From: Escherichia phage ELT1
Sequence record: MZ892903.1
Reading direction: 5' to 3' (one strand)
DNA length: 64,000 nucleotides
The notes under the pieces: model-generated
What the model saw: the letters and a program-made list of their open reading frames with translations, nothing else
Told to the model about the DNA's origin: nothing
Database searches by the model: none
Shown: piece after piece, positions 561-15,733 of the stretch
How positions within the stretch are numbered: position 1 is the stretch's first letter
Layout of the letters: each line of letters begins with the position of its first letter
Translations under genes and position numbers: made by a program

Positions 561-565
561 AAATA

Positions 566-592: not shown

Positions 593-593
593 A

Positions 594-743
594 TTACTGT
601 TCAAACGCGATAACTATCGTGATAACACGCTGAATACCAAAAGCAAGAAGACCTCCTGCTACGGCTGGAACAACACCTACCCCCGCTAGTAAAATGCCGC
701 CAGATACTAATGCTGCGCTTGTAATACCTACGAATGGACTCAT
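594..743 (-). CDS. small hydrophobic protein, 49 aa
   Basis: ATG overlaps gene 52 stop (ATGA); product MSPFVGITSAALVSGGILLAGVGVV... predicted membrane peptide. Confidence 0.4.
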   Translation of the reverse strand: MSPFVGITSAALVSGGILLAGVGVVPAVAGGLLAFGIQRVITIVIAFEQ

Positions 744-2068
744 TTGATTTCCTCTAAATCTTTGGTGTATTCTGTAACTACATCAGTAGTTTTCCAATAT
801 TCGTTTTCTTCTTTTTTGGCTTTAGCTTCTTCAGCAAGTTTCTTTGCTTCGTCGGAAGTCATATGAAAAATGTTCATTCCAACTAGTTTATCAACATAAG
901 AAGAATACATATCAATTTTAGAAAGTTCTTCGGTCAGTTCTTTGCGAGTTTTACCTTGTACAACAATTTCACCTGAAATTACTTTCTTAATGAAATGTGC
1001 CTTGGCAAAAGCTAAACGAAATGCTGATTCAGTTTCTTTGATTTTGTTATCAATTCGTTTTTGGACATAAGTTTTACGAACTTCAACGAAGTCTTTGATT
1101 AAATCAACTACGTTATCGTAAACTTGCAGCTTTCCTTTCTCATTAATAACGGTAATATTTTGGGAACGACGCTCAATCAACCCGAAGTCTTTCATGATTT
1201 TTGCATGGCGTTCTTCTTCATTATCGCTCAAAGAGTATTCTTTGCGGAATTTAATTTTAAAGCCAAAACCATGCTCACCGCAAGCATCATCCCATGTAAT
1301 GAAGCCTTTATCTTCAAGCGGGTCTAAGATTTTACTCACATAAGTTTCACGATCATACTTATATGGAATCTCAGTGATATGCATTTGAGTTCGTGAAGTA
1401 AACTTATATGTTCCACGAATTTCATATTGCCCATCAATTTCAACGACTTCACCACGAAATTCTGGGAATTCTACCTTCGGTTTAGTTACTTTCTTTCCTT
1501 GAAGAGCTTGTAGTACAGCTTTCTTGACAGAAGAAACACTATGAGGAAGAATGTAAGTTGCATAACCAGTTGCAATACCGGAAACACCATTAAGAAGAAC
1601 AGTAGGAATAATAGGCAAATAGAAAGCAGGAGGAATGTGTTCTTTATCTTGATGTACCGGAGCATATTCAGTATCTTTATATACGTTATAGAAATTTTTA
1701 CTTACACGAGCAAAAATATAACGACTTGCTGCTGCCTTTTGGACAGTACGAGAACCAAAGTTTCCTTGACCGTCTAACAGAGGAAAGTTATTATTCCAAG
1801 TATTAGCCATCAAAGCCCCCGCGTCTTGCGCAGAGTTTTCACCATGATGATATCCAAGGTCAGCTACACCACCTGCAATAGAAGCGAGTTTGTGAAACTT
1901 ATCTTTATTTCCTCGCGCCAAATCAAGAGCTCGAGCAATAACAAATCGTTGAACTGGCTTAAATCCATCAATCATATTTGGAATAGCACGATTTTCAACC
2001 GTGTACATAGCATAAGCCAGTGCTTCATTATCAATGATACTTTTTAAATCGCGATTATTCAGTTGCAT
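740..2068 (-). CDS. 52: DNA topoisomerase II medium subunit (GyrA-like), 442 aa
   Basis: 442-aa ORF; sequence and length match recalled T4 gp52. Confidence 0.95.
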   Translation of the reverse strand: MQLNNRDLKSIIDNEALAYAMYTVENRAIPNMIDGFKPVQRFVIARALDLARGNKDKFHKLASIAGGVADLGYHHGENSAQDAGALMANTWNNNFPLLDGQGNFGSRTVQKAAASRYIFARVSKNFYNVYKDTEYAPVHQDKEHIPPAFYLPIIPTVLLNGVSGIATGYATYILPHSVSSVKKAVLQALQGKKVTKPKVEFPEFRGEVVEIDGQYEIRGTYKFTSRTQMHITEIPYKYDRETYVSKILDPLEDKGFITWDDACGEHGFGFKIKFRKEYSLSDNEEERHAKIMKDFGLIERRSQNITVINEKGKLQVYDNVVDLIKDFVEVRKTYVQKRIDNKIKETESAFRLAFAKAHFIKKVISGEIVVQGKTRKELTEELSKIDMYSSYVDKLVGMNIFHMTSDEAKKLAEEAKAKKEENEYWKTTDVVTEYTKDLEEIK

Positions 2069-2072
2069 AAAT

Positions 2073-2213
2073 TTACCATACTAGTGAATGTAGTGCCATA
2101 ATAACATCAGAAATGAAAAGCACGACTTGAATTAATCCGAACATTACTCCATAATATAGTGCTACCAATAAAGCAGCAAGGGCTACCGAGTAGCCCAAGA
2201 TTTTCTTAATCAT
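2073..2213 (-). CDS. small hydrophobic protein, 46 aa
   Basis: ATG overlaps ac stop; product MIKKILGYSVALAALLVALYYGVMFGLIQ... Confidence 0.35.
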   Translation of the reverse strand: MIKKILGYSVALAALLVALYYGVMFGLIQVVLFISDVIMALHSLVW

Positions 2214-2361
2214 TAGATAACAACGCAAATGTTAAATATGCACACATACCCTGGGCTAAAGCTTGTGAAAACACACTGCTAGCATCGATACAGATAGTTA
2301 AAACACATGCTACTATCCAACAAATAAATGAAATAACTCCTAATAATTTTGCGATATTCAT
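2206..2361 (-). CDS. ac: acriflavine-resistance membrane protein, 51 aa
   Basis: product MNIAKLLGVISFICWIVACVLTICIDASSVFSQALAQGMCAYLTFALLSND; position between 52 and stp as in T4. Confidence 0.65.
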   Translation of the reverse strand: MNIAKLLGVISFICWIVACVLTICIDASSVFSQALAQGMCAYLTFALLSND

Positions 2362-2368
2362 ATTTTCC

Positions 2369-2449
2369 TCACTGGCGTCCGAAGACGCCTTTGGTTTTAA
2401 GATTGTTACGATAGAACTGCATCACGTGTTCGTTATGGAAATTGCTCAT
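2369..2449 (-). CDS. stp: Stp peptide (suppressor of pnk; activator of PrrC anticodon nuclease), 26 aa
   Basis: product [26 protein letters not shown] matches recalled T4 Stp; start overlaps ndd stop (TAATG). Confidence 0.8.
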
Positions 2450-2907
2450 TAATATGCCTGCAAAACAAATTTAAAATTATCAGCCAACATACGATTCATT
2501 TCTTCAAGCGTTTGATACTCAGAATGATGATTACGAGTAAACGCTAAAGCTAACTGACCTTTTCCAAATCCCGTCGTCAGAGGTTTCATCTTAGAAGCAG
2601 GTAGATAAAATACCGTGTATGGAACATTGTTATTTGCAATAGTACGCGCAAGCTGAGATCGACGCTGGCGAATATGACTTAAAACCGCGCTGAATCCTTG
2701 CTTAGAACGCTGATTACCTACATAAAATCGTGCAGACACACATGGATTACTAAATGGACGACCATCTAATTTACTCACTAAAAAGTAAAATCCAGGTTTA
2801 GATAAAATATCTTTATGCGGAGTTCCCAAAAACCACTCACCGTTCTTGATTGTACCAATAACAGTTGCGCCTGCATTATTCAGATCAGTAACAGTCATAT
2901 ATTTCAT
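2449..2907 (-). CDS. ndd: Ndd nucleoid disruption protein, ~152 aa
   Basis: ORF 2449-2955 trimmed to [13 protein letters not shown]... start with GAGG RBS; matches recalled T4 Ndd. Confidence 0.85.
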
Positions 2908-2967
2908 ATTAATTTCCTCTAAATTATTTTCTACTCCAAGGCCGCATGAATACACACGGCCATTAAA

Positions 2968-3183
2968 TTACTCGTCGCAGTCGACGCTCAATTCCCAAAA
3001 CTCTTCTACGGTATAAGTTTCAGTATCATTTTCAATACAGAAACGTTCATTACTGTTATTTGCTAAAGTAGCATTAACTGTCGGTTTCTCGTTAGTGCTC
3101 TTAAGAGGTGAAATACGAATTAACTGATCACCGTTATCTAAACAGAAAATTTCACCAACTTTTATATCTTTAAAAATTTTCAT
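2968..3183 (-). CDS. hypothetical protein, 71 aa
   Basis: ORF track; ndd.1-like position. Confidence 0.45.
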   Translation of the reverse strand: MKIFKDIKVGEIFCLDNGDQLIRISPLKSTNEKPTVNATLANNSNERFCIENDTETYTVEEFWELSVDCDE

Positions 3184-3191
3184 AATTCACC

Positions 3192-3302
3192 TCAGGGAGT
3201 ATAAAATCCAAATGCAGTTGTTGACCATCCCATCCAATATAGGAAATTTGCACCAATGTAAAACATAAGAATATAAAACCAAATGTTTAGTAAATTCATC
3301 AT
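3192..3302 (-). CDS. small hydrophobic peptide, 36 aa
   Basis: own translation MMNLLNIWFYILMFYIGANFLYWMGW...; one of a run of tiny membrane ORFs. Confidence 0.3.
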   Translation of the reverse strand: MMNLLNIWFYILMFYIGANFLYWMGWSTTAFGFYTP

Positions 3303-3361
3303 TTTACACCATTCCAAATTGTTTCAACTACGGATTTTAAACCATTTTGATGAATATCAAT

Positions 3362-3496
3362 TCAGACAACTGCCATCAAATAGATTCCAACTACAACTGA
3401 ACCCAAGGCGAAAATCAGCATGAAAATGAATAAAGCCGGAAAAATATTATCGAAAAACCATTCAATAAATGTAAAAGCACTGCGTTTACGCTTCAT
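3362..3496 (-). CDS. small hydrophobic peptide, 44 aa
   Basis: own translation MKRKRSAFTFIEWFFDNIFPALFIFMLIFALGSVVVGIYLMAVV. Confidence 0.3.
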   Translation of the reverse strand: MKRKRSAFTFIEWFFDNIFPALFIFMLIFALGSVVVGIYLMAVV

Positions 3497-3503
3497 ATTT
3501 TCC

Positions 3504-3617
3504 TCACATAAATCCAAAGTAAACGTTTAATACATCAATCATTAAAACGATTGGGAATATACTCAAAACTATTAGTATTATAACTACATTCCATATAGCT
3601 TTAACAATCTTTTTCAT
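3504..3617 (-). CDS. small hydrophobic peptide, 37 aa
   Basis: ORF 3504-3752 trimmed to MKKIVKAIWNVVIILIVLSIF... because upstream part spans a promoter. Confidence 0.3.
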   Translation of the reverse strand: MKKIVKAIWNVVIILIVLSIFPIVLMIDVLNVYFGFM

Positions 3618-3639
3618 TTTCTGTTCCTCCGTAGTTGAT

Positions 3640-3695
3640 AGGGTAATAGTACCACGGAAGAACAGTCTTGTAAACAACTTTTTTAAAAATATTCG
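3640..3695 (-). promoter_or_regulatory. T4-type early promoter
   Basis: GTTTAC (revcomp) 3670-3675, -10 TAATAGTACCAC-like 3644-3655, A/T upstream tract. Confidence 0.45.
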
Positions 3696-3781
3696 TAATA
3701 AATGTGAATACCAACTACTACTGCCGAAACTTGCGCAACCCACCACGCACACGCAATAAGTACAGAATTCAAAATTTTCAT
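3683..3781 (-). CDS. small hydrophobic peptide, 32 aa
   Basis: own translation MKILNSVLIACAWWVAQVSAVVVGIHIYYEYF. Confidence 0.25.
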   Translation of the reverse strand: MKILNSVLIACAWWVAQVSAVVVGIHIYYEYF

Positions 3782-3860
3782 AATAACCTCATCACAAAAG
3801 TAAATGTTAAACAAATTATTGGAATACTAATTAACCAAACAAAACACCACCATAATGAAC

Positions 3861-4124
3861 TCATAGTTCAATCTCAGCGATTTTCATTTCATTACTATTA
3901 ATAGCCTCTTTAAGACTATCTGAAAGAATTACATTCCAGTGGTCATTCATATGACCATTAACTAAGCGTGTAATTTCTTCAGGAGTTGAAAAATAAGGCT
4001 GATCAGACTCCCAATGCGATAATCCTAAGCGAGTATAAATCATACCTTCATCATCGCTAGAATATTCAACTGACACAAACTCATCAGTTATTTTATGTTT
4101 AGCGTAATAAAATTTAAATTTCAT
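3861..4124 (-). CDS. hypothetical protein, 87 aa
   Basis: ORF 3861-4217 trimmed to MKFKFYYAKHK... start with GGAGGAG RBS. Confidence 0.45.
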   Translation of the reverse strand: MKFKFYYAKHKITDEFVSVEYSSDDEGMIYTRLGLSHWESDQPYFSTPEEITRLVNGHMNDHWNVILSDSLKEAINSNEMKIAEIEL

Positions 4125-4144
4125 TTTTACTCCTCCGTAGTTGA

Positions 4145-4200
4145 TAAGGTAATAGTACCACAGTCCTTGTGGTATGTAAACCGTTTTGTGAAATTTTTTT
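4145..4200 (-). promoter_or_regulatory. T4-type early promoter
   Basis: GTTTAC (revcomp) 4176-4181, -10 4150-4161, CCACAGTCCTTGTGG palindrome in spacer. Confidence 0.45.
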
Positions 4201-4756
4201 AAATGGAAAGATACCATCCGTTGTAGTTGCTTTTTCTTACAACCTTACGAAGGTCTTCTCTGTCACCGATGAACTTCGGAGTGTACTGGATGACACCTGG
4301 ATGAATTTCTTTAGTGTTGAATATAATTATACAGTCCGCGACTTGATGATTAAGAATGGGCCCTAGATTTATTCCAGAACCATATGGATACTCTCCGCTG
4401 CATCCTGTTGTTACAGAAATCCAACGCGAGTCAGTTTGATGTGTCTTAACTTCTACACGGAGCCCGCAGTATTTTGGATGTGCTAAAACATCCCATGCAT
4501 ACGTGTACGGATCATCGACATCTTCTTGACCTTTGTTAACATACCCGCTTAGCCAATCTGCTACAAAAAACTCTGCGTACACCGCGATACGGCATCTTTC
4601 AATAACTTCTGCTTTATCCTGGTTCGGGTTTTGTTTTAAAGAGTATCTTGCAGTATCAGCAATTTTGACCTTCATTTCACTAGTCAAGTCACTGTTCGAT
4701 AGGGTAAATGTCGGAATCTGAAATAGTCTCTGTAAACCTGGATTCGTTTTCTGCAT
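4199..4756 (-). CDS. denB: endonuclease IV (DenB), 185 aa
   Basis: 185-aa ORF; sequence and length match recalled T4 DenB. Confidence 0.8.
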   Translation of the reverse strand: MQKTNPGLQRLFQIPTFTLSNSDLTSEMKVKIADTARYSLKQNPNQDKAEVIERCRIAVYAEFFVADWLSGYVNKGQEDVDDPYTYAWDVLAHPKYCGLRVEVKTHQTDSRWISVTTGCSGEYPYGSGINLGPILNHQVADCIIIFNTKEIHPGVIQYTPKFIGDREDLRKVVRKSNYNGWYLSI

Positions 4757-5018
4757 TTAGACTTTCCTTTTTACCACTAAGATAAGCGTTATATACTTTA
4801 AGAGTACCATAATAAATTCGATCATTTTCATCTAAAGAATTATGATCAAGTTCATCGAGATTCTTTTTATCCATGACTATAATATCATTGCAGTAAAGAA
4901 ACCCAAGTTTTTCGTGACCAAACTCAAATTTATTGCAGTACACAATATTAGCGTGATGATTTCCGTGCAGTTTAATCTCTTTTATGTCGGAATCACCGAT
5001 ATTCATACAATAAATCAT
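4689..5018 (-). CDS. hypothetical protein, 109 aa, overlaps denB 5' end
   Basis: ORF track; between rIIB and denB. Confidence 0.4.
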   Translation of the reverse strand: MIYCMNIGDSDIKEIKLHGNHHANIVYCNKFEFGHEKLGFLYCNDIIVMDKKNLDELDHNSLDENDRIYYGTLKVYNAYLSGKKESLNAENESRFTETISDSDIYPIEQ

Positions 5019-5034
5019 AATTTTTCCTTAAAAC

Positions 5035-5055
5035 AAAAGGGCCGAAGCCCTTTAT
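5035..5055 (-). terminator. intrinsic terminator hairpin
   Basis: AAAAGGGCCGAAGCCCTTTATTTT. Confidence 0.5.
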
Positions 5056-5056
5056 T

Positions 5057-5251
5057 TTACTTGAATTGTGCAATTCTTTTCTCTAGACATTCAGCATAAG
5101 ATTTCATTGAGATGAACTGTGAAAGTAGAAGTTCTTGCTCAACTGCACTAACCGTTAGAAACTTTGTGCTTTCTAAAAATTTGCTCAGTGCATTAATTTT
5201 GAGCATTAATTGATCGTATTCTTCTTTTACTCGTGCTTGATAACCTAACAT
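5057..5251 (-). CDS. hypothetical protein, 64 aa
   Basis: ORF track. Confidence 0.4.
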   Translation of the reverse strand: MLGYQARVKEEYDQLMLKINALSKFLESTKFLTVSAVEQELLLSQFISMKSYAECLEKRIAQFK

Positions 5252-5267
5252 AATTTTCCTTAATGTG

Positions 5268-5288
5268 ATAAGGGCCGAAGCCCTTATT
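5268..5288 (-). terminator. terminator-like hairpin 3' of rIIB
   Basis: GGGCCGAAGCCC stem-tetraloop followed by T-run on minus strand. Confidence 0.45.
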
Positions 5289-6222
5289 TAAATTGTTCAG
5301 TAACGTCTTCAACTACTTCGTATTGGCAGGTACGCATTTTAGCATCGTTGTAATCAATCGGAATTGATACTACATCACGCGGATGTACTTTAACTTTTAC
5401 AACTCGGCTGGTTGAACTGCCAAAGTGACGAATATAAGATTTAGAACACACATGCAGACCACGAGAACAAGTTTGTGTATCATCGTCATTCACACGAGTA
5501 CGTGGCATTTTAACTACTTTACCAGGACTGTTATCAAATGTGTTTGAGTGACAGTCAAAGTAATTGCTGCGAACTACTTTCCAAGCATAGAAGTAACCAT
5601 CTTCTGTAATTTCAATATCGTTTGCTACCAAGAAATCAAAGAGTCGAGATACCGCTTTTTGGCTTGGGTTTTCCAGCAGATTTTCCAAGAACGGAAAATA
5701 AAATTCAAAGTTTTCGCCTTTTTCCATCGAATCAAGAATACGATCAACTAAACCAGACCGCAATTCAATATTTTGATAGAACAAGCTTCCACCTTCAATT
5801 CGAACATCACCGGAAATATATTTTTCAACAGCGCGACGAACGTTAATTTTTTGCGCAGCTTCTTCCAGCTTATCCGCTACAAGCAGATTAAGAATTTCCT
5901 GGAAGTTTGAATGAGTATTAGGAGTTGCGTTATAAGTTACACCGTCAACAGTAATTGAAATGAATTTTTTAGATGCATTCCAAATAATGTCAGATTTAGC
6001 AACTGGAGCAATAACTGCATCGCTATTAACTTTAACTGTAATATCACCGCTAATAGTAACTTTAGGGCGTTTAGCTTCTTCAGCATTTTTCAAAACACGA
6101 CGGATTGTGTCAACCGATACATCCTTCCAATAAGCCAATTCCTGTTGGGTGTAATTACCACTTGAATACAGTTTAACAATTTCAGCTTGTTCGTTTTTGG
6201 TCAGGCATTTAATATTGTACAT
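5284..6222 (-). CDS. rIIB: rIIB rapid-lysis/membrane-associated protein, 312 aa
   Basis: 312-aa ORF; matches recalled T4 rIIB; adjacent to rIIA. Confidence 0.9.
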   Translation of the reverse strand: MYNIKCLTKNEQAEIVKLYSSGNYTQQELAYWKDVSVDTIRRVLKNAEEAKRPKVTISGDITVKVNSDAVIAPVAKSDIIWNASKKFISITVDGVTYNATPNTHSNFQEILNLLVADKLEEAAQKINVRRAVEKYISGDVRIEGGSLFYQNIELRSGLVDRILDSMEKGENFEFYFPFLENLLENPSQKAVSRLFDFLVANDIEITEDGYFYAWKVVRSNYFDCHSNTFDNSPGKVVKMPRTRVNDDDTQTCSRGLHVCSKSYIRHFGSSTSRVVKVKVHPRDVVSIPIDYNDAKMRTCQYEVVEDVTEQFK

Positions 6223-6233
6223 AATTTTCCTTA

Positions 6234-8411
6234 TTAGGCCGCAAGGGCCTTCATAGTTTTAGCGATTTGGGAAACTTCATCATCACTTAAAGAGTTGCGA
6301 TAACCGATGAAGTCAGAAACAATACGGAATTTCTTGGTAAACTCAGCAACCATTTTATCACTGTTTTTTGAAGCATTACGTGATAATTCATCAAAGAGAT
6401 TAGTTACTGTCCAGATGTCATGACCGATAGTATCTTTTCCACCATTAAAATATACACCCTGTAATGAACTAACCATATTAGCGAGTCGTGTATATTCTTC
6501 AGAAACTTCATCTACACTGAAGTACTTCATCATAAAATCTAGCTCAGGATACTTGATAATTTTATCAATATATCGTTTAGCTGAACTTGAATAACCTACA
6601 TACTTATCATAATCTACATCATCAAAAGCATCTACATATAAATCACGCAAAGCTTCAAAAATACATTGGCACTGACCGAGTTCTTTTACCTTTTTCTGTA
6701 AAAGCGGACGAATAACATAAAATTCATTAATGCCAATAAGATTAGCCATACGAATCAAAATATTCATAGATGGATGACAAAGAGATGTAGTACCATCCAT
6801 AGAGAAAATATCAGAACGATGCATATACGCTACATAACCAGTAATTTCATCTGCTTCTGACGTAAGTGTAAACAGTTCCTCTTTTTCCCAGCGCCCATCT
6901 TTAATTTCAAACTTAAATGCTGTAGCAGCTTTAGGACGAGGAGCTTTACTTTTTACTGCCTTTGGAATATAACTTTTAACTAAAGCTTCAATTTCTGACA
7001 AATAATGAATGTTAACTTCATCATTTTCAAACATTGCCATAATATCAGGGAGTAAATCAATCTGTGATTCTACTTCCGGATTAATAAACAGAAGACGTTC
7101 GTTATGATGAATATTCAGAGTGTTATTAAATTCACTATCATCTAATGCACGTGCTAATCCACGGACAATATTAACACGATTTTTAATATTATCAATAACG
7201 ATATTAATTTTTGTTGTATTAATACCAAACAGACGATAACTTGACGCAACGGCTGATGTTTCATGACTTTGCTTAATGCGCTTCAGTCGAGGGTCAAGAT
7301 TTACTTCATACACAACTCCTGCATTACATAACTTACTGTCAGGTTCAAACATGCTCTGCATCTTTTTATATGACAGATTTTTAGTCGTGAATTTGACCGA
7401 ATTACTAATCATATAATCTCGAGCAGAATATCCCATCTTCATTAATTCGCGATATGTGTGACGAGGAGATGTAGATTCTTTAAATCGTTTTACATCTTCA
7501 TTAAATGCTTTCTCACTAAGCTCTTTAACTCGTTCAATAATATTTTTACGAGTGCGATCATCTAATGAAAGAGCTTCACGTGATGGAGCAATATCAAGTG
7601 AACCCATTGGAAATTTAATGTAATTCACTTCATTACGAATGCTTAGCCAGTTACGGTCTCTAATAACACCATCGATAGGATAAACAATACCACCATAGAT
7701 AGCATATAATCCACCACGATCTGGCCAGTATCTTTCTGGATTTACGCCGTAATAGTCATCAAAATCCGGAAAATAATCAATTTCGCGGTCAAGACCATTA
7801 ATGATAGCCAAATCTTTGAATGGTCGCATGATATAAGAAACTTCATAAGCAAAGTTTCTAAAGTCTTTTTCTTCAACTGGAACTACGATTTCAATACCAG
7901 TTTTATCATCTGGACCCATTTCTTTTACGAATGTAGGTTTAATCTGTGGTCCATCACCATCCATGTAAGCTACATAACCACGAATTTCACCTTTATGATA
8001 CGAAGTAATACTAAACGTATCAGTATAACTAAACGGAGATTTAGAACCTAAACCAAATCCGCCAATGAAATCGTTAGATTCAGCCTTAGATGAACTGAAG
8101 TATGAATTATACAGCCCAGGAGAATTATCATCACCCTGAATATCAAAATCACTCATACCCGGACCAAAATCTCGACAAACAAATCGTGGATCTAAACGTC
8201 CAGGAACTTGAATGATAAATTTTTCAGGATTTCCATTGAGAGCATGGGCATCAATCATGTTAGTAATCAATTCACGGACTACTGCGCGAATCTTGTTTGT
8301 ATACAAATCAGATGACAGAATTTTAAATACTTTAGGAGATGCTGTGATGCTAAATGCTTTTGATTTAGAACCATTACCAAGAATTGTTTCTTTTTCAGTG
8401 GTGATAATCAT
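6234..8411 (-). CDS. rIIA: rIIA protein, 725 aa
   Basis: 725-aa ORF; matches recalled T4 rIIA. Confidence 0.95.
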
Positions 8412-8421
8412 AATTTCCTCA

Positions 8422-8625
8422 TTAATTCATATTACGCTTAATAACTTCAGCAACTTCTAGTAGTTCATCTTTAGTTGCGGTGTCGGATTGAATTTTATCT
8501 CTAATATCCTTAAAGCGGTTTTTAAACTCTTCGGCTTCTCCCATATCGAAAAAGCGTTGAATGATTCTATATTCTCGATGAACTGCTTTATCAAAAAGTT
8601 CTAAATTTACTTTATATGATTTCAT
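8422..8625 (-). CDS. hypothetical protein, 67 aa (rIIA.1 position)
   Basis: ORF track. Confidence 0.45.
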
Positions 8626-8647
8626 TTCAATATCCTCATTTGCCCAA

Positions 8648-8685
8648 TTAATTATACCACATCCTTGTGGTAAAGTAAACTACTG
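8648..8685 (-). promoter_or_regulatory. T4-type early promoter inside 3' end of gene 60
   Basis: GTTTAC (revcomp) 8675-8680, -10 TTATACCAC 8652-8660, CCACATCCTTGTGG palindrome. Confidence 0.45.
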
Positions 8686-9212
8686 GCTCATCCATTCTTT
8701 ACGAAGGTCAGCGTTATCTCCCATGAGCATTTCAAAAAGCTCTTTCCAATTCTCAGGAAGTTTAACAACATCATAAACTGGGTTCTGAATCATTTCACGG
8801 TATTCAGATTTTTCCAAAGAGCCAAGTCCCTTAATATAACGGATGCTATGTTTAGGTAGAGCATCTTTGGCACTCTCATATTCAGCGACTGTATAAAACC
8901 ATTCTTGTTTTTTACCGACCTGAGCGATGATTACAGGAGTTTTGACAAAGCGAATTCTTCCTTGTTCAAACAGTTCTGGCCAATTACTAAAAAATCCGAG
9001 CAGAGAAGGATAAATAGAACCTAATCCAATAATCTCTTAATTATGAGGTATTTCAATGGATAGCCCGAAGGCTATCCATCGTGATCTGCGTCTGTCATAA
9101 TAGCGACATTCGCATAGTTCATTGAAGAGGATTTAATAGAACGACGAACATTGTTCTGCAATTTATATTTTTTCATATCAACGCTAGAAGAATCAATTTT
9201 TACAAATTTCAT
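8680..9212 (-). CDS. 60: topoisomerase II subunit gp60 with 50-nt translational bypass; coding = complement(join(8683..9024,9075..9212)), 160 aa
   Basis: codons 1-46 MKFVKIDSS...IMTDADHDG end GGA then TAG; translation resumes after landing GGA with LGSIYPSLLGFFSNWPELFEQGRIRF...WMSQ. Confidence 0.9.
9025..9077 (-). other. gene 60 bypass element: take-off GGA, UAG stop, stem-loop, 50-nt coding gap, landing GGA
   Basis: minus strand GGA TAG CCTTCGGGCTATCC...ATTATT GGA TTA; 50 nt from after take-off GGA through landing GGA. Confidence 0.9.
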
Positions 9213-10011
9213 TATACACCTCATAGAACTTTTCATCAGGAATCCAACCGCGTTTAAATTCATTAAATGCTCGGCCGAATAATTTTGAATTCACAGTTAT
9301 ATTATTAACTGATTTCCATTTAGCAACTCCCGTTCGTTTATAATGATCGGGGTCATATTTCGTGACGTACCATTCATATAAATTTGGTATTAATTTTACA
9401 GCCTCTGGATTTGTCGCTGATTTATTATACCATGGTTTCGCTTTTTCAAGTTCAGCTGCTTTTGCAGTAGCAGCAACAGTATTTCCAATACCAACTAATT
9501 TTTCAGCTTTAATGCGTGGATCATTAACATGAAGACGAAAAACTTCGCCTTTTTCATTTTTAAAGCATGTCATGCCTTTAATTCCAGGAAGCTTAACACC
9601 TTTATTAACACCGCACCATTCCTTTGGGTTAAATGATCCTTTAATTAATAAGGCGCATTTACCCGATTTAATACTTCTCATTAAAACTTTATCTTTCATA
9701 AAGTTTTTTGACCATTCAGATACTGCTCTTTGATGGTAAATTCTAGCAATTTCATATAATTTACTAGAACGTAAATATTTTTCAGTGTTTAACATTCTAT
9801 TCATCGCATATGCCATTTCACGATTACGATGAATTTTATATAGTAGAAAATGTGCTAAAAAGTGTTCACGAAAAGTCAGTTTCACCAAATTTTCTTTATC
9901 ATCAGAACCTCCCATTGATCTTGGAAGGATATGGTGAATTTCACCCTTAAATTTAGAAACGCGGGTTTTACCCCGCACTATTAAGTCATTATAGATTTTT
10001 TCGTAATTCAC
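9193..10011 (-). CDS. mobA: HNH homing endonuclease (MobA-like), 272 aa, GTG start
   Basis: HHILPRSMGGSDDKENLVKLTFREHFLAHF HNH motif; lies between 39 and 60, overlapping both. Confidence 0.75.
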   Translation of the reverse strand: MNYEKIYNDLIVRGKTRVSKFKGEIHHILPRSMGGSDDKENLVKLTFREHFLAHFLLYKIHRNREMAYAMNRMLNTEKYLRSSKLYEIARIYHQRAVSEWSKNFMKDKVLMRSIKSGKCALLIKGSFNPKEWCGVNKGVKLPGIKGMTCFKNEKGEVFRLHVNDPRIKAEKLVGIGNTVAATAKAAELEKAKPWYNKSATNPEAVKLIPNLYEWYVTKYDPDHYKRTGVAKWKSVNNITVNSKLFGRAFNEFKRGWIPDEKFYEVYNEICKN

Positions 10012-11539
10012 CTACTGTTATCCATTTACCATTAATCTGTACTTCATCATTTTCATTTACAATAATTGTATCACCATTTAGTTCGAGAGTAAACCACTCA
10101 CCGTCTTCTTTTTCTTCAAACGCCTTTTCACCAAGAACTAATCCAGTGATTGCGCAAATATCAAACAGTTCTTTGTTTTTAAGCATGTCAGCATATGACA
10201 TACCCCAGCTATTAAGAACTTTACCGCGCAATGGATAACCACCATGAAGTTCTTTATCGCGAACATCAATAAGATATCCGATAGCAGAATCACCCTCAGT
10301 CAAGAAAAGAGTAGTGTCAGCATCTTTACCACAAAGATTCGCTTTGATATGTTTATGAACCTTAGCTTTAGAAGCCTTTTTAGCTGCTTTAGTTTCTGCT
10401 GCTTTTTCTGCCGCCAATTTACGAGCCAAAGCAGCTTCAATAATTGGCATTAAAATTGCTTCATTATTTAAAATAGCACGTGAAATCTTTTTAGCATCAA
10501 GCTGAATATGACTACGGATTTCACCAAATGGAGAAGTCAAACGCTCTTTAGTTTGAGAATCAAATCGCATGTTTTTCATATCACGAACAAACATAACGAT
10601 AGTCAAACATTCTTTAACACGTGCTTTAGTTACATCAATTTTGAATTTACGTTTGATTTGCGGAATAAGGTCTTCACAAATATCATCCATAACACAGTCA
10701 ATGTGATGGCCACCATTCTTAGTATGAATGTTATTGACGTATGTTAATTGACGAAAACCATCGGGTGAACGACCGACCGCAATAGAACAGTTTTCTTGTT
10801 CTTGAACGATGGCGTGTTCATCATATTGGCGTGCATATTTCTTAAAATTACCCTGAACCTTTTTACCATTAAAGGTAAATTGAATATCAGGATAAACTAC
10901 TGCAAGTGTCTGGAGACGATCTAGTGTAATGTCAAGATAAACTTGGGACAGCTCATTAGTTTCAAATGACATAAAATCAGGAATGAAAGTAACACGAGTT
11001 CCTTTCCATTTTCCAGGAATAGTTTCCCATGATTTATTTTCCATGCCATTTGAACAACGAACTACAATATTATTTTGACCATCACCAGTTTCACCGACAA
11101 ACATCACAGAAAAAATGTTTGTCAAACTAGAACCAACACCATTCATACCGCCAGTGACGCGTTCTTTATCATCACCGAAGTTACCACCTGCTTTTGGAAT
11201 AGTCCAGGCAGCAACTGGACCAGGAATTTCTTCACCGGTAGGTGTTTTGACCATCGCTTGTGGAATACCGCGACCGTTATCTTCAACTGTTACTTGATTG
11301 TTTTTAATAGTAACATTAATTTTATTTGCGAATTTAAACTTAGTACGAATACCTTCATCTACTGAGTTATCGATAATTTCATCAATAAGCTTAACAAGAC
11401 CAGGTACATACTGAACACTTTCCCATTTACCAAACAGAAAGCGCTCATGCATTTCATTAGCAGAAGAGCCAATATACATGCCGCTACGCTTTTTGATATG
11501 TTCAATATCGCTCAGAATTTTAATTTCATTCTTAATCAT
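9989..11539 (-). CDS. 39: DNA topoisomerase II large subunit (GyrB-like ATPase), 516 aa
   Basis: ORF trimmed to MIKNEIKILSDIEHIKK... ATG with GAGGA RBS; matches recalled T4 gp39. Confidence 0.95.
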   Translation of the reverse strand: MIKNEIKILSDIEHIKKRSGMYIGSSANEMHERFLFGKWESVQYVPGLVKLIDEIIDNSVDEGIRTKFKFANKINVTIKNNQVTVEDNGRGIPQAMVKTPTGEEIPGPVAAWTIPKAGGNFGDDKERVTGGMNGVGSSLTNIFSVMFVGETGDGQNNIVVRCSNGMENKSWETIPGKWKGTRVTFIPDFMSFETNELSQVYLDITLDRLQTLAVVYPDIQFTFNGKKVQGNFKKYARQYDEHAIVQEQENCSIAVGRSPDGFRQLTYVNNIHTKNGGHHIDCVMDDICEDLIPQIKRKFKIDVTKARVKECLTIVMFVRDMKNMRFDSQTKERLTSPFGEIRSHIQLDAKKISRAILNNEAILMPIIEAALARKLAAEKAAETKAAKKASKAKVHKHIKANLCGKDADTTLFLTEGDSAIGYLIDVRDKELHGGYPLRGKVLNSWGMSYADMLKNKELFDICAITGLVLGEKAFEEKEDGEWFTLELNGDTIIVNENDEVQINGKWITVGELRKNL

Positions 11540-11566
11540 CACTTATCCTCGTTTGGTTTCGGGAAT

Positions 11567-11592
11567 ATTATACTCCGGTAATCATAAAGCTA
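11567..11592 (-). promoter_or_regulatory. middle-promoter-like element upstream of gene 39
   Basis: minus strand AGCTTTA (MotA-box-like) about 12 nt upstream of TATAAT. Confidence 0.35.
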
Positions 11593-11608
11593 AAGGCCCG
11601 AAGGCCTT
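11592..11608 (-). terminator. terminator-like hairpin
   Basis: GGCCCGAAGGCC stem-tetraloop then T-run, 3' of ORF 11609-11869. Confidence 0.45.
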
Positions 11609-11869
11609 TTATTTAAAACGAATAGTCGAATCCTTGAAGAATAGTCCAGAACATACTGTTCCTTCTACTTTCTGCCCAGTAGGTCCAATAGCACGAAATC
11701 CAGTATGCTGGAAATCATTTTCAGAGCAACCGAACCAATTATATCCAGTGATTTCAATATTAGTAAAACCGCTTGAAGACAAAACTTTGGTTGCATTATC
11801 AGCATCAGTACATCCTACTAAAGATACTGCTAATACTAATGCTGCGATAGAACGATTAACATATTTCAT
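11609..11869 (-). CDS. predicted lipoprotein, 86 aa
   Basis: signal peptide with lipobox LVGC. Confidence 0.5.
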   Translation of the reverse strand: MKYVNRSIAALVLAVSLVGCTDADNATKVLSSSGFTNIEITGYNWFGCSENDFQHTGFRAIGPTGQKVEGTVCSGLFFKDSTIRFK

Positions 11870-11871
11870 AA

Positions 11872-12048
11872 TTACCCTTTAAGTAAGTCGTAAAATCCAC
11901 CGTTCACATGCTTAGGAGCGGAAACTAACCGAATAGCAATCCGATGACAATCAGGACATACATCAGTATCCCTTTCAGAAATTTTCTTGATTTTTTCGTA
12001 TTCTTTTGCACAGTCTTTGGATTGACATTTATAATCATAAAGAGGCAT
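11872..12048 (-). CDS. zinc-ribbon protein, 58 aa
   Basis: own translation MPLYDYKCQSKDCAKEYEKI...CPDCHRIAI; two CxxC pairs. Confidence 0.45.
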   Translation of the reverse strand: MPLYDYKCQSKDCAKEYEKIKKISERDTDVCPDCHRIAIRLVSAPKHVNGGFYDLLKG

Positions 12049-12050
12049 AA

Positions 12051-12476
12051 TTATTCCTTAAAGTGAGCTTTCAACATCTGATACAAAGACCATGCCTGTT
12101 CATTATTTTCAATAGTAACTTTCATGACAGGAAATTCTGTGAAATCTTCTATTTGTTCTTGCTCTTTCTCTTCCTGCTCTTGCTCTTCAGCTGCCTGGTA
12201 TGGATTTTCAACTTCATCAAAGAATTCAGCTTCGCTAGTAGAAAGCCAAATAAAATCTTCATCCAAAATATCTTTACCGGAGGATAATGCCAATCTTCCA
12301 GTAGATGTCACAATTTTAGTAGGACGACCAAGATAGTCAATATCTATAACTTTAAAAGGTTCCATACCTAAACGTCGTGCATAAATTCCGTTTTCAGTAT
12401 GATATTTAATAAATTTTTCTTGAGCTTGTTTATTTTTGAATTGATACCATTTATTAACTTCAAATTTAATAGCCAT
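12051..12476 (-). CDS. goF: GoF (comC-alpha)-like protein, 141 aa
   Basis: ORF trimmed to [13 protein letters not shown]...; length and position as T4 goF. Confidence 0.55.
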
Positions 12477-12691
12477 TAATAAATTTCCTTCCAATAAGTT
12501 GTGCCATTTTCAGTAATTTCACGAAATACACCATAAATTGGTTGTTTATCACCGACTTTCTCATACACATAAACAGAAGTCAAGTGAGTAAACTTGCTAG
12601 TATGTTCCTTTTGAACTACTACCAAATTTGGATCAAATAATACATCTTCAAATTCATCATTAGTGCAATTCTGAACAATTTTACGTTTCAT
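12476..12691 (-). CDS. cef: Cef-like protein (modifier of suppressor tRNAs), 71 aa
   Basis: 71-aa ORF in T4 cef position. Confidence 0.55.
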
Positions 12692-12799
12692 TACAATTTC
12701 CTCATTAATTAAACATTGGAGCGATGCGTTTCAGAAGAGTATCAGCACCTTTGGCGAATTTCCATTTTATTCTCCAAGTTGTTTTCTGTATCAGTAGTT

Positions 12800-12850
12800 G
12801 ATATTGATATAGTACCATAATCAACTACTGATGTATATAGTTTTATGAAA
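12800..12850 (-). promoter_or_regulatory. promoter-like element with flanking 11-bp inverted repeat
   Basis: -10 ATATAGTACCAT 12807-12818 inside CAGTAGTTGAT...ATCAACTACTG palindrome; -35 degenerate. Confidence 0.3.
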
Positions 12851-12862
12851 AAATTTTAAACT

Positions 12863-13360
12863 TTATGCACAGCGAGCTTTGCTATAGTGTTTAATCCAAC
12901 TTTCAGGAATGACTTTGTATGTTCCTAAAAATACCGCGTTGTACAGCTTAACACCATCTTCTACCCACTGATCGGTAATGTATGCGCACATAGCACGAGT
13001 ACGGCGTTTTTGAACAACCCCTTCCTCATCTTCAGTAAATTCGAATTCATAAGGAGCAATGAACTTAATAGCTTGACCGAGTTTCCACTTAAAGTCTACA
13101 CCTACATGCGAAGTATCAATCGTTTCAATTCCTTTAGCGGGAACAGCTTTCAAAAACGCAGATTCAAGAAATTTCGCGCGAACATAACCAAACTGAGGTT
13201 TAGACTTTCCATCTTTAGGAATGATACGCACTTTTACTTCAGAATCTTCATCTTTAACGCCGTGTTTAAGCTGAATGCTTACAATTTCGACCAATTTTCC
13301 TGCTGCTTTAGAGCGGGATTTATCAGATACACGAGCAATTTCACCAATATTAATAATCAT
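12863..13360 (-). CDS. motB: MotB-like protein, 165 aa
   Basis: length and position as T4 motB; shares C-terminal motif with next ORF. Confidence 0.55.
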   Translation of the reverse strand: MIINIGEIARVSDKSRSKAAGKLVEIVSIQLKHGVKDEDSEVKVRIIPKDGKSKPQFGYVRAKFLESAFLKAVPAKGIETIDTSHVGVDFKWKLGQAIKFIAPYEFEFTEDEEGVVQKRRTRAMCAYITDQWVEDGVKLYNAVFLGTYKVIPESWIKHYSKARCA

Positions 13361-13404
13361 AGTTATCTCTCACTTGTTAAAAAGATTTTATACTCCACAG
13401 GACC

Positions 13405-13440
13405 ATTATACTCTGGTCCCAAGAGTTTGTAAACTATTAA
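13405..13440 (-). promoter_or_regulatory. T4-type early promoter
   Basis: GTTTAC (revcomp) 13429-13434, -10 TATACTCT 13407-13414. Confidence 0.4.
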
Positions 13441-13982
13441 TTCAAAATAGCTACCACCGCACTACGAGGTACTACACTAAAATCTCCTGCATGGACAACG
13501 TTCAGAAGCTCAACACCATCTTCAATCCACTGGTCTGTTACCCAACCACAGATAGGATTATCAAAAGGACGACGGATAGACACAGCAGCACACAACAGGT
13601 CTGTAGGGTCTTGTTCTTCAACTTCTTGGAACAGGATGAACTCATCTTCATAAACCAGGTTTTTCTTTATTTTGTTATTATCTAACCGGCGACCGTGGAT
13701 GACGTAAGATTTGTCAAACCACTCACTTTTGGCAAATTCTTCAACAATAAATTCGCCTTCGCCAAAAACATCAGTCAGAGTTTTATGACCAGAAATCAAG
13801 GCATTAGTTTTAATTTTAGGTTCAACCAGTTTGTAGGTTTTGCCGATTTCAATAGCGGTAGTCATAGTAGGTTCCTTAATTTCCAGTGGTTTAACAGGGC
13901 ATACATAAGTGCTTACAACATCAAAATCAATCAGTTTAGCTACCGGATTCGGTGTGTATTCAGGATTATAATTAAATTTCAT
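13437..13982 (-). CDS. MotB paralog, 181 aa
   Basis: C-terminus VTDQWIEDGVELLNVVH resembles motB ITDQWVEDGVKLYNAVF. Confidence 0.5.
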   Translation of the reverse strand: MKFNYNPEYTPNPVAKLIDFDVVSTYVCPVKPLEIKEPTMTTAIEIGKTYKLVEPKIKTNALISGHKTLTDVFGEGEFIVEEFAKSEWFDKSYVIHGRRLDNNKIKKNLVYEDEFILFQEVEEQDPTDLLCAAVSIRRPFDNPICGWVTDQWIEDGVELLNVVHAGDFSVVPRSAVVAILN

Positions 13983-13984
13983 AA

Positions 13985-14524
13985 TTATCTCATTTCAATA
14001 AAATCTACGAGTTCAGCATGCGATTTGCGGAACATTACTTGGTGCCCACCAATGATAACTTCATCTTCAGGAACTTCGTATACAGCGAGATAAAATCCTT
14101 TAGAAGATAATTCTTCCCGCTCTTCTCGTGTGAACCATCTCATCATATCATATTCGCTAGCGAAAGCAAAATGATAAAGACCTATAAACCACCCTGGAAT
14201 ATGATATTCTACTCCAACATAATCTTTCTTGAACTTAGTATTAATTACTATATTAGCGTTTTTAACTAATAGTTTATCTTCGTGTGGTAAAGGAATTCTT
14301 TTATTATTATCGCTATGATGCATAAAATTAGGTCTGTCATAACCTACGTGTAATAGCCACTCTTCGCTCCATGAATCTATTATACTCCTGTATGGCGTTA
14401 TTTGAACACAAAGATTTCGACGTATTGTTATAGCATCTTCATAATTAAGAATACTAAACGATGATTCAACACGATAAATTTTCATTTTATTATCCTCAGT
14501 AGCTATGATGTTATAATACCACAA
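13985..14524 (-). CDS. hypothetical protein, 179 aa
   Basis: ORF track. Confidence 0.45.
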   Translation of the reverse strand: MWYYNIIATEDNKMKIYRVESSFSILNYEDAITIRRNLCVQITPYRSIIDSWSEEWLLHVGYDRPNFMHHSDNNKRIPLPHEDKLLVKNANIVINTKFKKDYVGVEYHIPGWFIGLYHFAFASEYDMMRWFTREEREELSSKGFYLAVYEVPEDEVIIGGHQVMFRKSHAELVDFIEMR

Positions 14525-14545
14525 CTAACCGAGGAAGTAAACAAT
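14505..14545 (-). promoter_or_regulatory. T4-type early promoter
   Basis: GTTTAC (revcomp) 14537-14542, -10 TTATAATACCAC ~14510-14522. Confidence 0.4.
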
Positions 14546-14548
14546 TTT

Positions 14549-15232
14549 TTATCGTTTTGTTGGAAGAGACAGAGGATCGCACTCTTCCTCTGATGGAGTA
14601 TCTTCAAGACCCATAGCGTATCGCAAAGCATACTTCATCATCAGGATGTCTTTCGCACAGTCATGAATAGAATTATGCGCAACAAATCCATCTAAAGTTC
14701 CCTTTGGAAGGGGGCATGTTGTCATATCACGAACAAGCAGAAGTGCTTCAATTCTGGTACGAATATCACGCTGATTCCAGAATTTACATGGTTCTAACTT
14801 AAATGTGTCAAGCTCATTCTCAGATACACCATTAAGGCGTTGAATATCACGAATGAGATCGACTAAAATTGGAAAATCAAACGACATTCCACGGCACCAG
14901 CCTTGAGATTTCCAAGGATCGATATTATGTGCATTGATGTAATCATTAAATTTTGCAATACCATCGATAGTGCTTACATCTTCATCTGATGGTGCAATAT
15001 TTTTTCTAGCTTCAGGTGATTGATTTTTCCACCATTCGATAGTACTTTTAGTAAAAAGACGATGTCCTTTTTGGCTTTTTAAATCAAACTTGATTTTAAT
15101 GCCGCGTGAAACTAATTCATCAAATGTTTCAATCACTTCTGGGTTAGGGTCAAAGGCAATAACAGCCAAATCAATAACGGCTGCTTTTTCACCACTTCCC
15201 ATTGTTTCAAAATCTATAATAAAATCAAACAT
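14549..15232 (-). CDS. dexA: exonuclease A (DEDD-type 3'-5' exonuclease), 227 aa
   Basis: 227-aa ORF matches recalled T4 DexA. Confidence 0.85.
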   Translation of the reverse strand: MFDFIIDFETMGSGEKAAVIDLAVIAFDPNPEVIETFDELVSRGIKIKFDLKSQKGHRLFTKSTIEWWKNQSPEARKNIAPSDEDVSTIDGIAKFNDYINAHNIDPWKSQGWCRGMSFDFPILVDLIRDIQRLNGVSENELDTFKLEPCKFWNQRDIRTRIEALLLVRDMTTCPLPKGTLDGFVAHNSIHDCAKDILMMKYALRYAMGLEDTPSEEECDPLSLPTKR

Positions 15233-15507
15233 TAAATTTTCCTTGCTAAATCGCGAATTTGACCTACAGTATAGTCTTGAATATAAACTTTATTAATGGG
15301 CTCATCAATAAATTTTGCCACAGATTCAATGTCTTTTTGTATCTCTTCAAGACTGTATACTATCTTTGAAGCTTTTTCGCGAATAGTAATATTTTCAGGA
15401 CCTGGATTTTCTTCAATGACATCTTTAACATTTGTTATAAGAGATTTAAACTGCCACCAACTTAATTCAATCATTAATAACCGCCTTATAAAGATAGCTA
15501 ATTTCAC
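15232..15507 (-). CDS. hypothetical protein, 91 aa
   Basis: ORF track. Confidence 0.45.
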   Translation of the reverse strand: MKLAIFIRRLLMIELSWWQFKSLITNVKDVIEENPGPENITIREKASKIVYSLEEIQKDIESVAKFIDEPINKVYIQDYTVGQIRDLARKI

Positions 15508-15727
15508 CTAAAATATAATCACTGATTGTAACAGTTTTTACTTCACCACAAAAGAATTCTAACGCAATTAAATCTCGTTCAATTTCTTCTAATTGAAGCA
15601 TCAACTTACTAGATTCAGTTTTCACATTTTTGCGATTTTTGCTATAAGCTATTTCATAAATTTCGCTTACTTTATCTTGAAGAAAATAAAACTGATCTTT
15701 AGTTATTTCCACGAATAGCTTCCTCAA
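15467..15727 (-). CDS. hypothetical protein, 86 aa
   Basis: ORF track. Confidence 0.45.
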   Translation of the reverse strand: MRKLFVEITKDQFYFLQDKVSEIYEIAYSKNRKNVKTESSKLMLQLEEIERDLIALEFFCGEVKTVTISDYILGEISYLYKAVIND

Positions 15728-15733
15728 ATTTAA

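Follow-up and report, generated by a model that had tools for sequence, protein, structure and literature searches.

Why does a phage early promoter carry a palindrome between its -35 and -10 elements? This question is raised by positions 8,648 to 8,685 of a 64,000-nucleotide stretch of DNA from Escherichia phage ELT1 (sequence record MZ892903.1; the whole stretch is called the window below), where the minus strand at 8651-8680 reads GTTTAC-tttaccacaaggatgtgg-TATAAT and a palindrome lies within the 18-nt spacer tttaccacaaggatgtgg. The preliminary description of this DNA had proposed a recurrent promoter module with a conserved palindrome in the spacer, possibly serving a role of its own. The observation is real but over-generalised, and its interpretation was partly right. 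Two classes of stem-loops are embedded in the promoters of the window: in class I the hairpin lies inside the spacer, and in class II the spacer pairs with the discriminator, the +1 box or the leader, sometimes including the ribosome-binding site. We cautiously favour the reading that both classes are intercistronic RNA stem-loops of the published kind in which an early promoter is joined to a stem-loop (PeSL), placed here in classical T4 early promoters and acting on read-through transcripts.

Early promoters of the window and the repeats within them

The 4-kb stretch around 8651-8680 shows 97-98.6% identity to T4 and its close relatives and matches 523 phage records; judged by its sequence, the source phage is a T4-like Tequatrovirus. 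The window spans the genes from the motA/52/ndd/rIIB end of the T4 map over rIIA, 39, dda, modA, 41, 43, 45, 46, 47, 55 and nrdD to the nrdC cluster (a window coordinate x corresponds approximately to T4 x-6222), and its minus strand holds essentially all of the genes. A position-weight matrix, seeded with the obvious copies of the module and iterated over the window, identified exactly 21 strong early promoters, all of them on the minus strand, and the scores drop from 27.9 for the weakest accepted promoter to 3.7 for the next match. The G of the -35 element lies at 539, 3675, 4181, 8680, 10094, 12838, 13434, 14542, 18177, 19512, 21613, 26461, 26964, 34637, 43256, 48689, 57293, 60264, 61706, 62186 and 63862; each core from -35 to -10 extends from this base 29 bases down, and the whole set covers 510-63862 (minus strand). 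The preliminary count of at least 17 minus-strand copies was thus correct in strand and recurrence but too low. The sequence TATA(G/A)TACCAC, which the copies were said to share, occurs exactly at only 4 sites, but when at most one mismatch is allowed there are 12 occurrences, of which 10 fall at promoters, compared to 2.2 expected; GTTTAC-N15-19-TAYAAT is found 7 times in the window compared to 0.22 expected.

The order of the module is an A/T-rich tract, GTTTAC, the 18-nt spacer, TA(C/T)(T/A)AT, the +1 box acaACTATCAAC and a leader of 15-30 nt with the ribosome-binding site GGAG or GAGG followed by ATG; the 3' end of the spacer is usually (t)gtGG, i.e. the extended -10. All 21 copies display the features of T4 early promoters (Pe), namely the -35 GTTTAC (TTTACa), the 17-bp sigma-70 spacing, TGn, the -10 TAnnnT and the A/T-rich upstream tract, and they are placed on the early-gene strand before rIIA.1, cef, motB, motB.2, srd, modB, mrh.2, sp, dmd, imm.1 and other genes. 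In organism group, strand, consensus and position before early genes they resemble the T4 Pe promoters, and there is no difference in the promoter itself. The recurrent module is a classical T4-type early promoter read by the host sigma-70 RNA polymerase, and the module scan and the match to T4 confirm the preliminary assignment to early sigma-70 promoters. T4 early promoters have been described as an 'uber' UP/-35/TGn/-10 type with added consensus regions beyond the hexamers (PMC2988021). Reviews of these promoters explain the extra conservation by optimised polymerase contacts, and intramolecular complementarity is not described there. Two promoter-like copies are situated within coding sequence and score lower: 10065-10094 (minus strand, score 30.4) near the 3' end of gene 39 and upstream of mobA, and 43227-43256 (minus strand, 28.1) inside gene 47, the latter copy with no start codon nearby.

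Inverted repeats are more frequent in these promoters than expected by chance. Perfect arms of at least 7 nt were found in 6 of the 21 promoters, compared to 1.4 in column shuffles that keep the consensus (P = 0.002) and 2.0 in random windows, and the arms of 13 bp and 9 bp are improbable even when taken singly. The sequence CCACATCCTTGTGG is present at 8657-8670 and 57270-57283, for which 0.05 matches would be expected by chance. However, the palindrome CCACA-AGGA-TGTGG that had been called conserved occurs in only three of the 21 promoters, including a variant with an AGGAC loop at 4158-4172, and the repeats vary between promoters in both sequence and position. The coordinates in the preliminary description had to be shifted slightly, although the repeats themselves exist: 8658-8670 and 57271-57284 were off by one base, 4157-4171 corresponds to 4158-4172, 12784-12829 to 12790-12832, and 61671-61696 to 61669-61699.

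Each repeat has one arm that belongs to the conserved part of the promoter, namely the extended -10 TGTGG-TA or the region of the post -10/+1 box (ATCAACTAC, ATCAAC, TACCCTA), and the second arm falls in the spacer, which is otherwise unconstrained. The palindromes are therefore not independent of the promoter, because one arm is itself a promoter element and only the spacer arm is free. The view that they are not needed for promoter recognition is correct for the spacer arm but not for the other one. That the repeats exceed chance and are selected for pairing is supported by covariation and by tests of spacer-leader pairing (see below). Given this selection, the repeats likely have a function apart from promoter recognition. 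One additional palindrome, the perfect 14-bp CATAAAGCTTTATG containing AAGCTT, fills the spacer of promoter 62186 at 62166-62179 (minus strand); its predicted fold is weak (-3.7 kcal/mol), a terminator is already present upstream of this promoter, and the palindrome may be due to chance.

The AGGA-loop hairpin of class I

The promoter at 8651-8680 (minus strand, -10 TATAAT) is the early promoter of rIIA.1. It lies between gene 60 and rIIA.1, and the TAG stop of gene 60 overlaps its -35 (TAGTTTAC). The hairpin TACCACA-AGGA-TGTGGTA at 8655-8672 (minus strand) has a 7-bp stem, folds with -8.2 kcal/mol (z -2.9) and obtains 32.5 bits in the covariance model described below; its 3' arm consists of the extended -10 and the first two bases of the -10 hexamer, and the whole hairpin is located between -35 and -10. 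A second copy is found in the early promoter after nrdC.5 (57264-57293, minus strand), which is fused to an nrdC.3-like open reading frame (ORF) and whose -35 is overlapped by the TAG stop of nrdC.5; here the hairpin is GCCACA-AGGA-TGTGGT at 57269-57284 (minus strand) with G.U as outer pair. The early promoter at 4152-4181 in the ndd-denB region (minus strand, -10 TACTAT) holds the variant TACCACA-AGGAC-TGTGGTA at 4156-4174 (minus strand) with a 5-nt loop (17.7 bits). The class I hairpins of the window fold with approximately -8 kcal/mol (z -2.2 to -2.9). A fourth one, TTATACCA-AGGA-TGGTATAA at 59654-59673 (minus strand, 29.7 bits), is situated between nrdC.8-like and nrdC.7-like ORFs. Attached to this hairpin is a perfect extended -10 (TGGTATAAT), but a -35 at the proper spacing is missing; the site may be a promoter that does without a -35 or the decayed half of an element. 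In T4, positions 49889-49910 (L002 37889-37910) read AGCCA-AGGA-TGGCT followed by cggagTATAAAT, upstream of nrdC.3 and without GTTTAC; the promoter looks degraded there, the hairpin is kept with a compensatory stem change, and the region is deleted in the window.

At least five lineages of T4-like phages have the hairpin with the AGGA loop. The spacer tttaccacaaggatgtgg is 100% identical in a Klebsiella phage whose core genes share only about 70% identity with those of T4; it is found there in front of cef and behind gene 43, and these copies precede different genes than in T4. In phage EnA02, CCACA-TGGA-TGTGG is found after gene 43, and other phages keep the loop and change the stem (cAACCA/TGGTTg, CATCC/GGATG, ACAAGCA/TGCTTGT, AGGCA/TGCTT). 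IMG/VR, scanned with one loose anchor pattern (GTTTAC, AAGGATG, TAYWAT), yielded 16 distinct T4-like promoter contexts and 66 other contexts. A stem of at least 5 bp around the loop was present in 12 of the 16 T4-like contexts, including a compensatory TCACA/TGTGA, compared to 3 of the 66 others, two of which are misclassified T4-like sites; three further T4-like contexts of the 16 form the alternative hairpin ACATCC-ATGGAA-GGATGT.

Covariation was evaluated in an alignment of 14 distinct promoter variants, from which four anchor matches without this hairpin had been left out, a choice that favours the structure. In this alignment the helix is paired in 92.9% of the cells compared to 64.4% in shuffles (0 of 500), and double-sided stem changes occur in 25 cells compared to 7.7 expected (0 of 500); controls with slid partners reached at most 0.235 compared to 0.725 for the true pairing. 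The loop core CA-AGGA-TG is invariant while the stems covary, and every imperfect pair is a G.U on the sense strand. With a covariance model derived from the alignment, 17 sites were detected in 345,723 bases, all 17 on the sense strand. Sixteen of them are located at early promoters or beside a -10-like hexamer, and one weak site (13.6 bits) lies inside gene 60; the sites lacking a proper -35 are the two at 59654-59673 of the window and 49889-49910 of T4. Generic GGA-loop hairpins are common under a loose definition (64 on the sense strand) and were not counted as evidence.

Relative to the hexamers, the hairpin occupies at least two registers shifted by 4 nt. These properties differ from those of a palindromic operator: the arms vary (CCACA, TCACA, AACCA, ATCCA, TTCCA, AAGCA), the invariant loop is asymmetric and the register moves. 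The variable stem, the invariant asymmetric loop, the shifting register and the survival without a -35 argue against a polymerase contact or palindromic operator and for a folded single strand. Rfam gave no match at gathering score in the whole window, hence no known RNA family was recognised. The 30-nt promoter module is present in 783 phage records with Escherichia, Klebsiella, Enterobacter and other hosts, mostly with two copies per genome. Matches with 92-97% identity also appear in records that are not obviously T4-sized, i.e. Salmonella phage emhyr (53 kb), Escherichia phage EC.W1-1 (38 kb) and a Klebsiella phage (261 kb).

Class II pairing and the placement of the stem-loops

For the pairing of the spacer with the sequence downstream of the -10, the 21 promoters of the window were combined with those from early regions of a Mosigvirus-like phage, Bp7 (Dhakavirus), the Klebsiella phage, EnA02 (Karamvirus) and JSE (Krischvirus) into a set of 58 promoters; JSE has no GTTTAC-type module and was used only for the published PeSL layouts, which it displays in the RB49-type form. 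GenBank phages of other genera were taken because MotB-anchored loci in IMG/VR numbered only seven, five of them nearly identical to the window, which made orthologue covariation uninformative. The RNA duplex of a spacer with its own leader is more stable (-10.55 kcal/mol) than with the leaders of other promoters (-7.82 kcal/mol); the permutation of own and mismatched leaders gives z = -8.4 for the 58 promoters and z = -4.95 for the 21 of the window alone. Compared to dinucleotide-shuffled spacers, 19 of the 58 promoters show z < -2 (p = 6e-7), in the window those at 3675, 12838, 13434, 14542, 21613, 26964, 60264 and 61706. Many of these hairpins share one register with the loop tgnTAnnn. A single fixed-register helix flanking the -10 was also considered as a universal feature and was rejected because it is marginal against shuffles; the register-free test was kept, and class II pairing is thus the property of a promoter subset.

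The strongest example is the cef promoter (-35 at 12838), in which 13-bp arms, ATCAGTAGTTGAT and ATCAACTACTGAT, flank the -10 at 12790-12832 (minus strand; -20.2 kcal/mol, z -6.9) and the 3' arm is the +1 box. The cef promoter has a different -10-flanking repeat in each of the T4-like, Dhaka-like and Karam-like groups of phages. In the dmd promoter, whose -35 at 26964 is overlapped by the gene 41 stop codon TAG, the hairpin pairs GACAAGACTA with TAGTCTTGTt at 26926-26953 (minus strand; -13.8 kcal/mol, z -3.7), and a comparison of the T4 dmd and mobD.2 promoters reveals the compensatory change GACAAGA(C>T)TA ... TA(G>A)TCTTGTC. At promoter 61706 the -10 hexamer itself is within the stem formed by GTAGGGTAGTAGTG and TACTATTACCCTAT (61669-61699, minus strand; -17.8 kcal/mol, z -5.2), and at the motB promoter (-35 at 13434) the arms GGGACC(A) and (T)GGTCCT flank TATAAT (13399-13420, minus strand). 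In other promoters the pairing reaches the ribosome-binding site, such as at 3675 (3621-3665, minus strand; 15 bp between CTGTTCTTCCGTGGT and ACTACGGAGGAACAG, z -5.9), at the motB.2 promoter 14542 (14493-14535, minus strand; z -4.8) and at 60264 (60211-60253, minus strand; z -4.5). The modB promoter (19512) forms a hairpin of 14 pairs between the -10 with discriminator and the ribosome-binding site with ATG of modB (19454-19488, minus strand).

The hairpins are placed where genes abut. In 35 of the 58 promoters the stop codon of the upstream ORF is at most 12 nt away from the -35, often in the form TAGTTTAC, and the cores of these promoters fold more stably (-10.8 compared to -7.7 kcal/mol, p = 0.014); promoters with a canonical terminator just upstream fold less stably. 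Such terminators exist in the window: GGGGAGC-TTCG-GCTCCCC followed by a T run at 571-588 (minus strand), just upstream of promoter 539, and similar ones upstream of promoter 21613 (21630-21647), promoter 62186 (62217-62234) and promoter 63862 (63879-63894). At 8680, 26964 and 57293 the upstream stop overlaps or abuts the -35 (TAGTTTAC), and at 13434, 61706, 60264 and 26461 it is at most 3 nt away; where it overlaps or abuts the -35, the promoter is the entire intergenic region. The placement data fit a rule of one stem-loop per gene junction, moved into the promoter when intergenic DNA is lacking.

Stem-loops joined to early promoters belong to a kind that has already been published for T4-type phages, a precedent absent from the preliminary description. 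In RB49 and phi1, PeSLs consist of an early promoter with a stem-loop between -35 and -10, overlapping either box or just outside (Arbiol 2010; PMC2839356). They mediate modular shuffling, and one phi1 stem-loop lowered the expression of a lacZ reporter like a strong terminator (PMC2839356). The concept was extended to PST/T4, where the stem-loops lie immediately upstream of the promoter (Comeau 2014; PMC4122927). In the window, stem-loops joined to an early promoter are those at 8655-8672, 57269-57284, 4156-4174, 12790-12832, 26926-26953, 61669-61699 and 13399-13420, and also the upstream terminators at 571-588 and similar positions. Like PeSLs, they combine a strong early promoter with a stem-loop, lie between small early ORFs and are tied to insertions and deletions between close relatives, seen in the cassette between 62186 and 61706, the loss of nrdC.4 at 57293 and cassettes at other loci. 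The stem-loops of RB49 and phi1, however, are built from G/C tracts (GGGG...CCCC) and have no conserved loop, whereas those of the window have A/T-richer stems, use a promoter consensus element as one arm and, in class I, retain the AGGA loop across genera. A spacer-internal hairpin with invariant AGGA loop and covarying stem is apparently undescribed within this known kind.

Several rearrangements involve the promoters. Compared to T4, an extra cassette lies between promoters 62186 and 61706, before nrdC.10, with ORFs of 72 and 87 amino acids and a second early promoter; its left breakpoint is the promoter +1 box CTATCAA, as in a PeSL-style insertion/deletion. At 56696-57293 the T4 gene nrdC.4 is missing, and the nrdC.4-type promoter and leader are fused to the nrdC.3-like ORF with a junction inside the first codons (ATGACTCGTAA) that are common to both paralogues. 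The cassette GTTTAC aaactcttgggacc(a/g)gag TATAAT ggtcct stands before motB in the window (13434) and before a gene 55.3-like ORF in Bp7 (L012 44720). Promoter cassettes change their locus.

Function of the promoter-embedded stem-loops

Both arms of class I and the 5' arm of class II are upstream of the start site. Hence, these structures can exist only in read-through RNA and not in the promoter's own transcript, and a study of the 5' ends of that transcript would miss the hairpin at 8657-8670. The level of action and the specific function we infer as follows. The 3' arm of the hairpin at 8657-8670 is the extended -10 of the promoter, and the 5' arm is a complementary stretch recruited in the otherwise free spacer. 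When polymerase coming from an upstream promoter reads through, the hairpin would form in the resulting RNA, and it would be sited inside the promoter since the upstream stop abuts or overlaps the -35 and no other intergenic room is left. There it would mark the 3' side of the upstream cistron, most likely as a barrier to 3'-exonucleases and/or an attenuator of read-through, and it would also lock up the pyrimidine-rich spacer. In a promoter subset the same principle could hide the downstream ribosome-binding site on read-through RNA.

Several results weigh against this view of intercistronic RNA stem-loops. The 3' arms continue into TATAAT..., ATCAAC... or similar sequences, and no spacer hairpin of the window is followed by a T run, hence they are not canonical intrinsic terminators. 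The fixed-register class II helix is paired in 56.2% of 55 aligned promoters compared to 53.0% in shuffles (12 of 500), barely above background, and about a third of the promoters have no hairpin at all. The sense strand is the more stable one in 67% compared to 65% in mismatched controls, i.e. the preference is no stronger than there. A purely structural role does not account for the invariance of the AGGA loop. Our literature search found no T4 3'-end maps or transcript-stability data. Finally, the ribosome-binding sites of all promoters are equally accessible behind native and foreign upstream segments (0.40 and 0.40, z = 0.2). Since the sense bias equals the compositional background, the comparison of sense and antisense stability was dropped as proof of selection at the RNA level; G.U pairs favour the sense strand (57 compared to 21), and action on RNA rather than DNA is only suggested. 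The spacer palindromes were also considered as intrinsic terminators, and this was rejected because of the absent T run; a terminator scan of 1-20000 detected none of them, and they lack the combination of a G+C-rich stem and a T run. They share with intrinsic terminators the position of a stem-loop directly 3' of a stop codon but differ by their short, A/T-rich stems.

The invariance of the loop core CA-AGGA-TG around a covarying stem makes recognition of the loop plausible. Tentatively, the class I hairpin could be a loop-specific site for protein binding or cleavage in read-through RNA, with host CsrA as the best candidate and T4 RegB as the second. CsrA could connect the hairpin with the GGA in the downstream ribosome-binding site, approximately 30 nt away, or could be titrated by abundant early RNA. 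The consensus for CsrA obtained by SELEX, RUACARGGAUGU, has fully conserved ACA and GGA, with the GGA in a hairpin loop (PMC4347634). The sequence CCACAAGGAUGUGG contains ACAAGGAUGU, which agrees with this consensus at 10 of 12 positions, and ACAAGGAUGU is present at both 8680 and 57293; the AGGA loop on a stem of 5-8 bp resembles the hairpin bound by CsrA, and ACUUUACCACAAGGAUGUGGUAUAAU is a candidate CsrA-binding RNA with the class I hairpin. The GGA-loop motif is moreover conserved in phages of enteric hosts. RegB by itself recognises GGA, and its sites occur in intergenic regions of early mRNAs (PMC3014915). However, the CsrA match was noticed post hoc, an exact ACARGGATGT is estimated to occur about 0.1 times per strand of the window, ACA is replaced by CCA or GCA in other variants, and the strong RegB consensus GGAGRAYARAA is not present. 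The candidate resembles CsrA/RsmA hairpins such as the CsrB-type repeats in being a short hairpin with GGA in the loop and in the exact match of ACAAGGAUGU to the consensus core, and it differs from those sites by its position in phage read-through RNA inside a promoter and by some variants without ACA. A literature search found no paper linking CsrA to T4 promoters. CsrA and RegB are thus speculative leads rather than results. That the CA-AGGA-UG hairpin is a dedicated RNA signal in read-through transcripts, read via its GGA loop by CsrA as the most plausible protein or by RegB alternatively, seems to us slightly more doubtful still. If true, the phage would tie what happens to polycistronic early RNA (translation of the following cistron, decay or processing) to a host RNA-binding protein, while transcripts initiated at the promoter itself would not contain the site and would escape.

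It is unlikely, but has a precedent, that the structures gate translation: the promoter-embedded 5' arm would mask the downstream ribosome-binding site on read-through RNA or, in promoters with a local hairpin, leave it open, so that expression of the downstream gene depends on which promoter made the RNA. In T4 genes e, soc, 49 and I-TevI, a late promoter is located in the 5' arm, so that only longer upstream transcripts fold a masking hairpin (PMC3014915). The same geometry is found at 3675, 14542, 19512 and 60264, whereas the hairpin at 8655-8672 falls short of the ribosome-binding site; the known cases are late promoters with experimental evidence, and those of the window are early promoters with predicted structures. 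At least three of four ribosome-binding-site bases are paired in 17 of 29 strong spacer-leader duplexes. At promoters 3675, 14542, 19512, 57293 and 60264 the predicted probability of an unpaired site decreases from 0.39-0.92 in the own transcript to 0.00-0.02 in read-through RNA (for modB at 19512 from 0.75 to 0.01), and the local-hairpin promoters 8680, 12838, 26964 and 61706 leave it more accessible than foreign upstream segments do (rank 45-50 of 52). These are thermodynamic predictions, however, and the hairpin at 8680 leaves the site free in read-through RNA (0.90 unpaired). General masking by the native upstream segment is unsupported on average, given the equal accessibilities reported above, and was kept for the subset only.

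Less likely again, the repeats could act on DNA, where the spacer sequence or a cruciform would tune binding of RNA polymerase or serve as a substrate for recombination. One arm is always an element contacted by polymerase, and the complementarity of the antisense strand is significant as well (z = -6.3). Nevertheless, varying arms around a fixed loop are the opposite of a palindromic operator, the hairpin occurs in different registers and persists without a -35, and the imperfect class I pairs are of the G.U type on the sense strand. Loops of 8-17 nt make cruciform extrusion unfavourable. Promoter modules bound insertions and deletions relative to T4, and the left breakpoint of the extra cassette at CTATCAA is as in the PeSL recombination model (PMC4122927), but homologous recombination requires likeness between promoters and not pairing inside one.

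We regard it as least likely that the palindromes are functionless, having been passed on along with promoter cassettes that were duplicated or transferred, and stay perfect through quasipalindrome-templated mutation, a known mutational process in T4: the three CCACA...TGTGG promoters are near-identical and could stem from one event, and the same cassettes occur at different loci in different phages, but at least six unrelated stem sequences surround one loop, the 18-nt spacer stayed fully identical where core genes are only about 70% identical, and hairpins are enriched specifically where the upstream stop abuts the -35.

T4 is a reference system for phage gene control, and the shaping and shut-off of its early expression are incompletely understood (PMC2988021, PMC3014915). 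The PeSL idea has so far rested mainly on positional evidence. The present analysis adds that promoter stem-loops of T-even phages are selected for pairing, are placed in the promoter when genes abut and fall into definable classes, one of which, the class with the invariant GGA loop, extends from Escherichia to Klebsiella and Enterobacter phages and offers a concrete target for mutation and binding work. If CsrA or RegB reads the loop, promoter architecture would be connected in a new way with post-transcriptional control. If neither does, the stem-loops would still explain why the spacers of T4 early promoters are not free sequence, which matters to anyone re-using these very strong promoters as parts.

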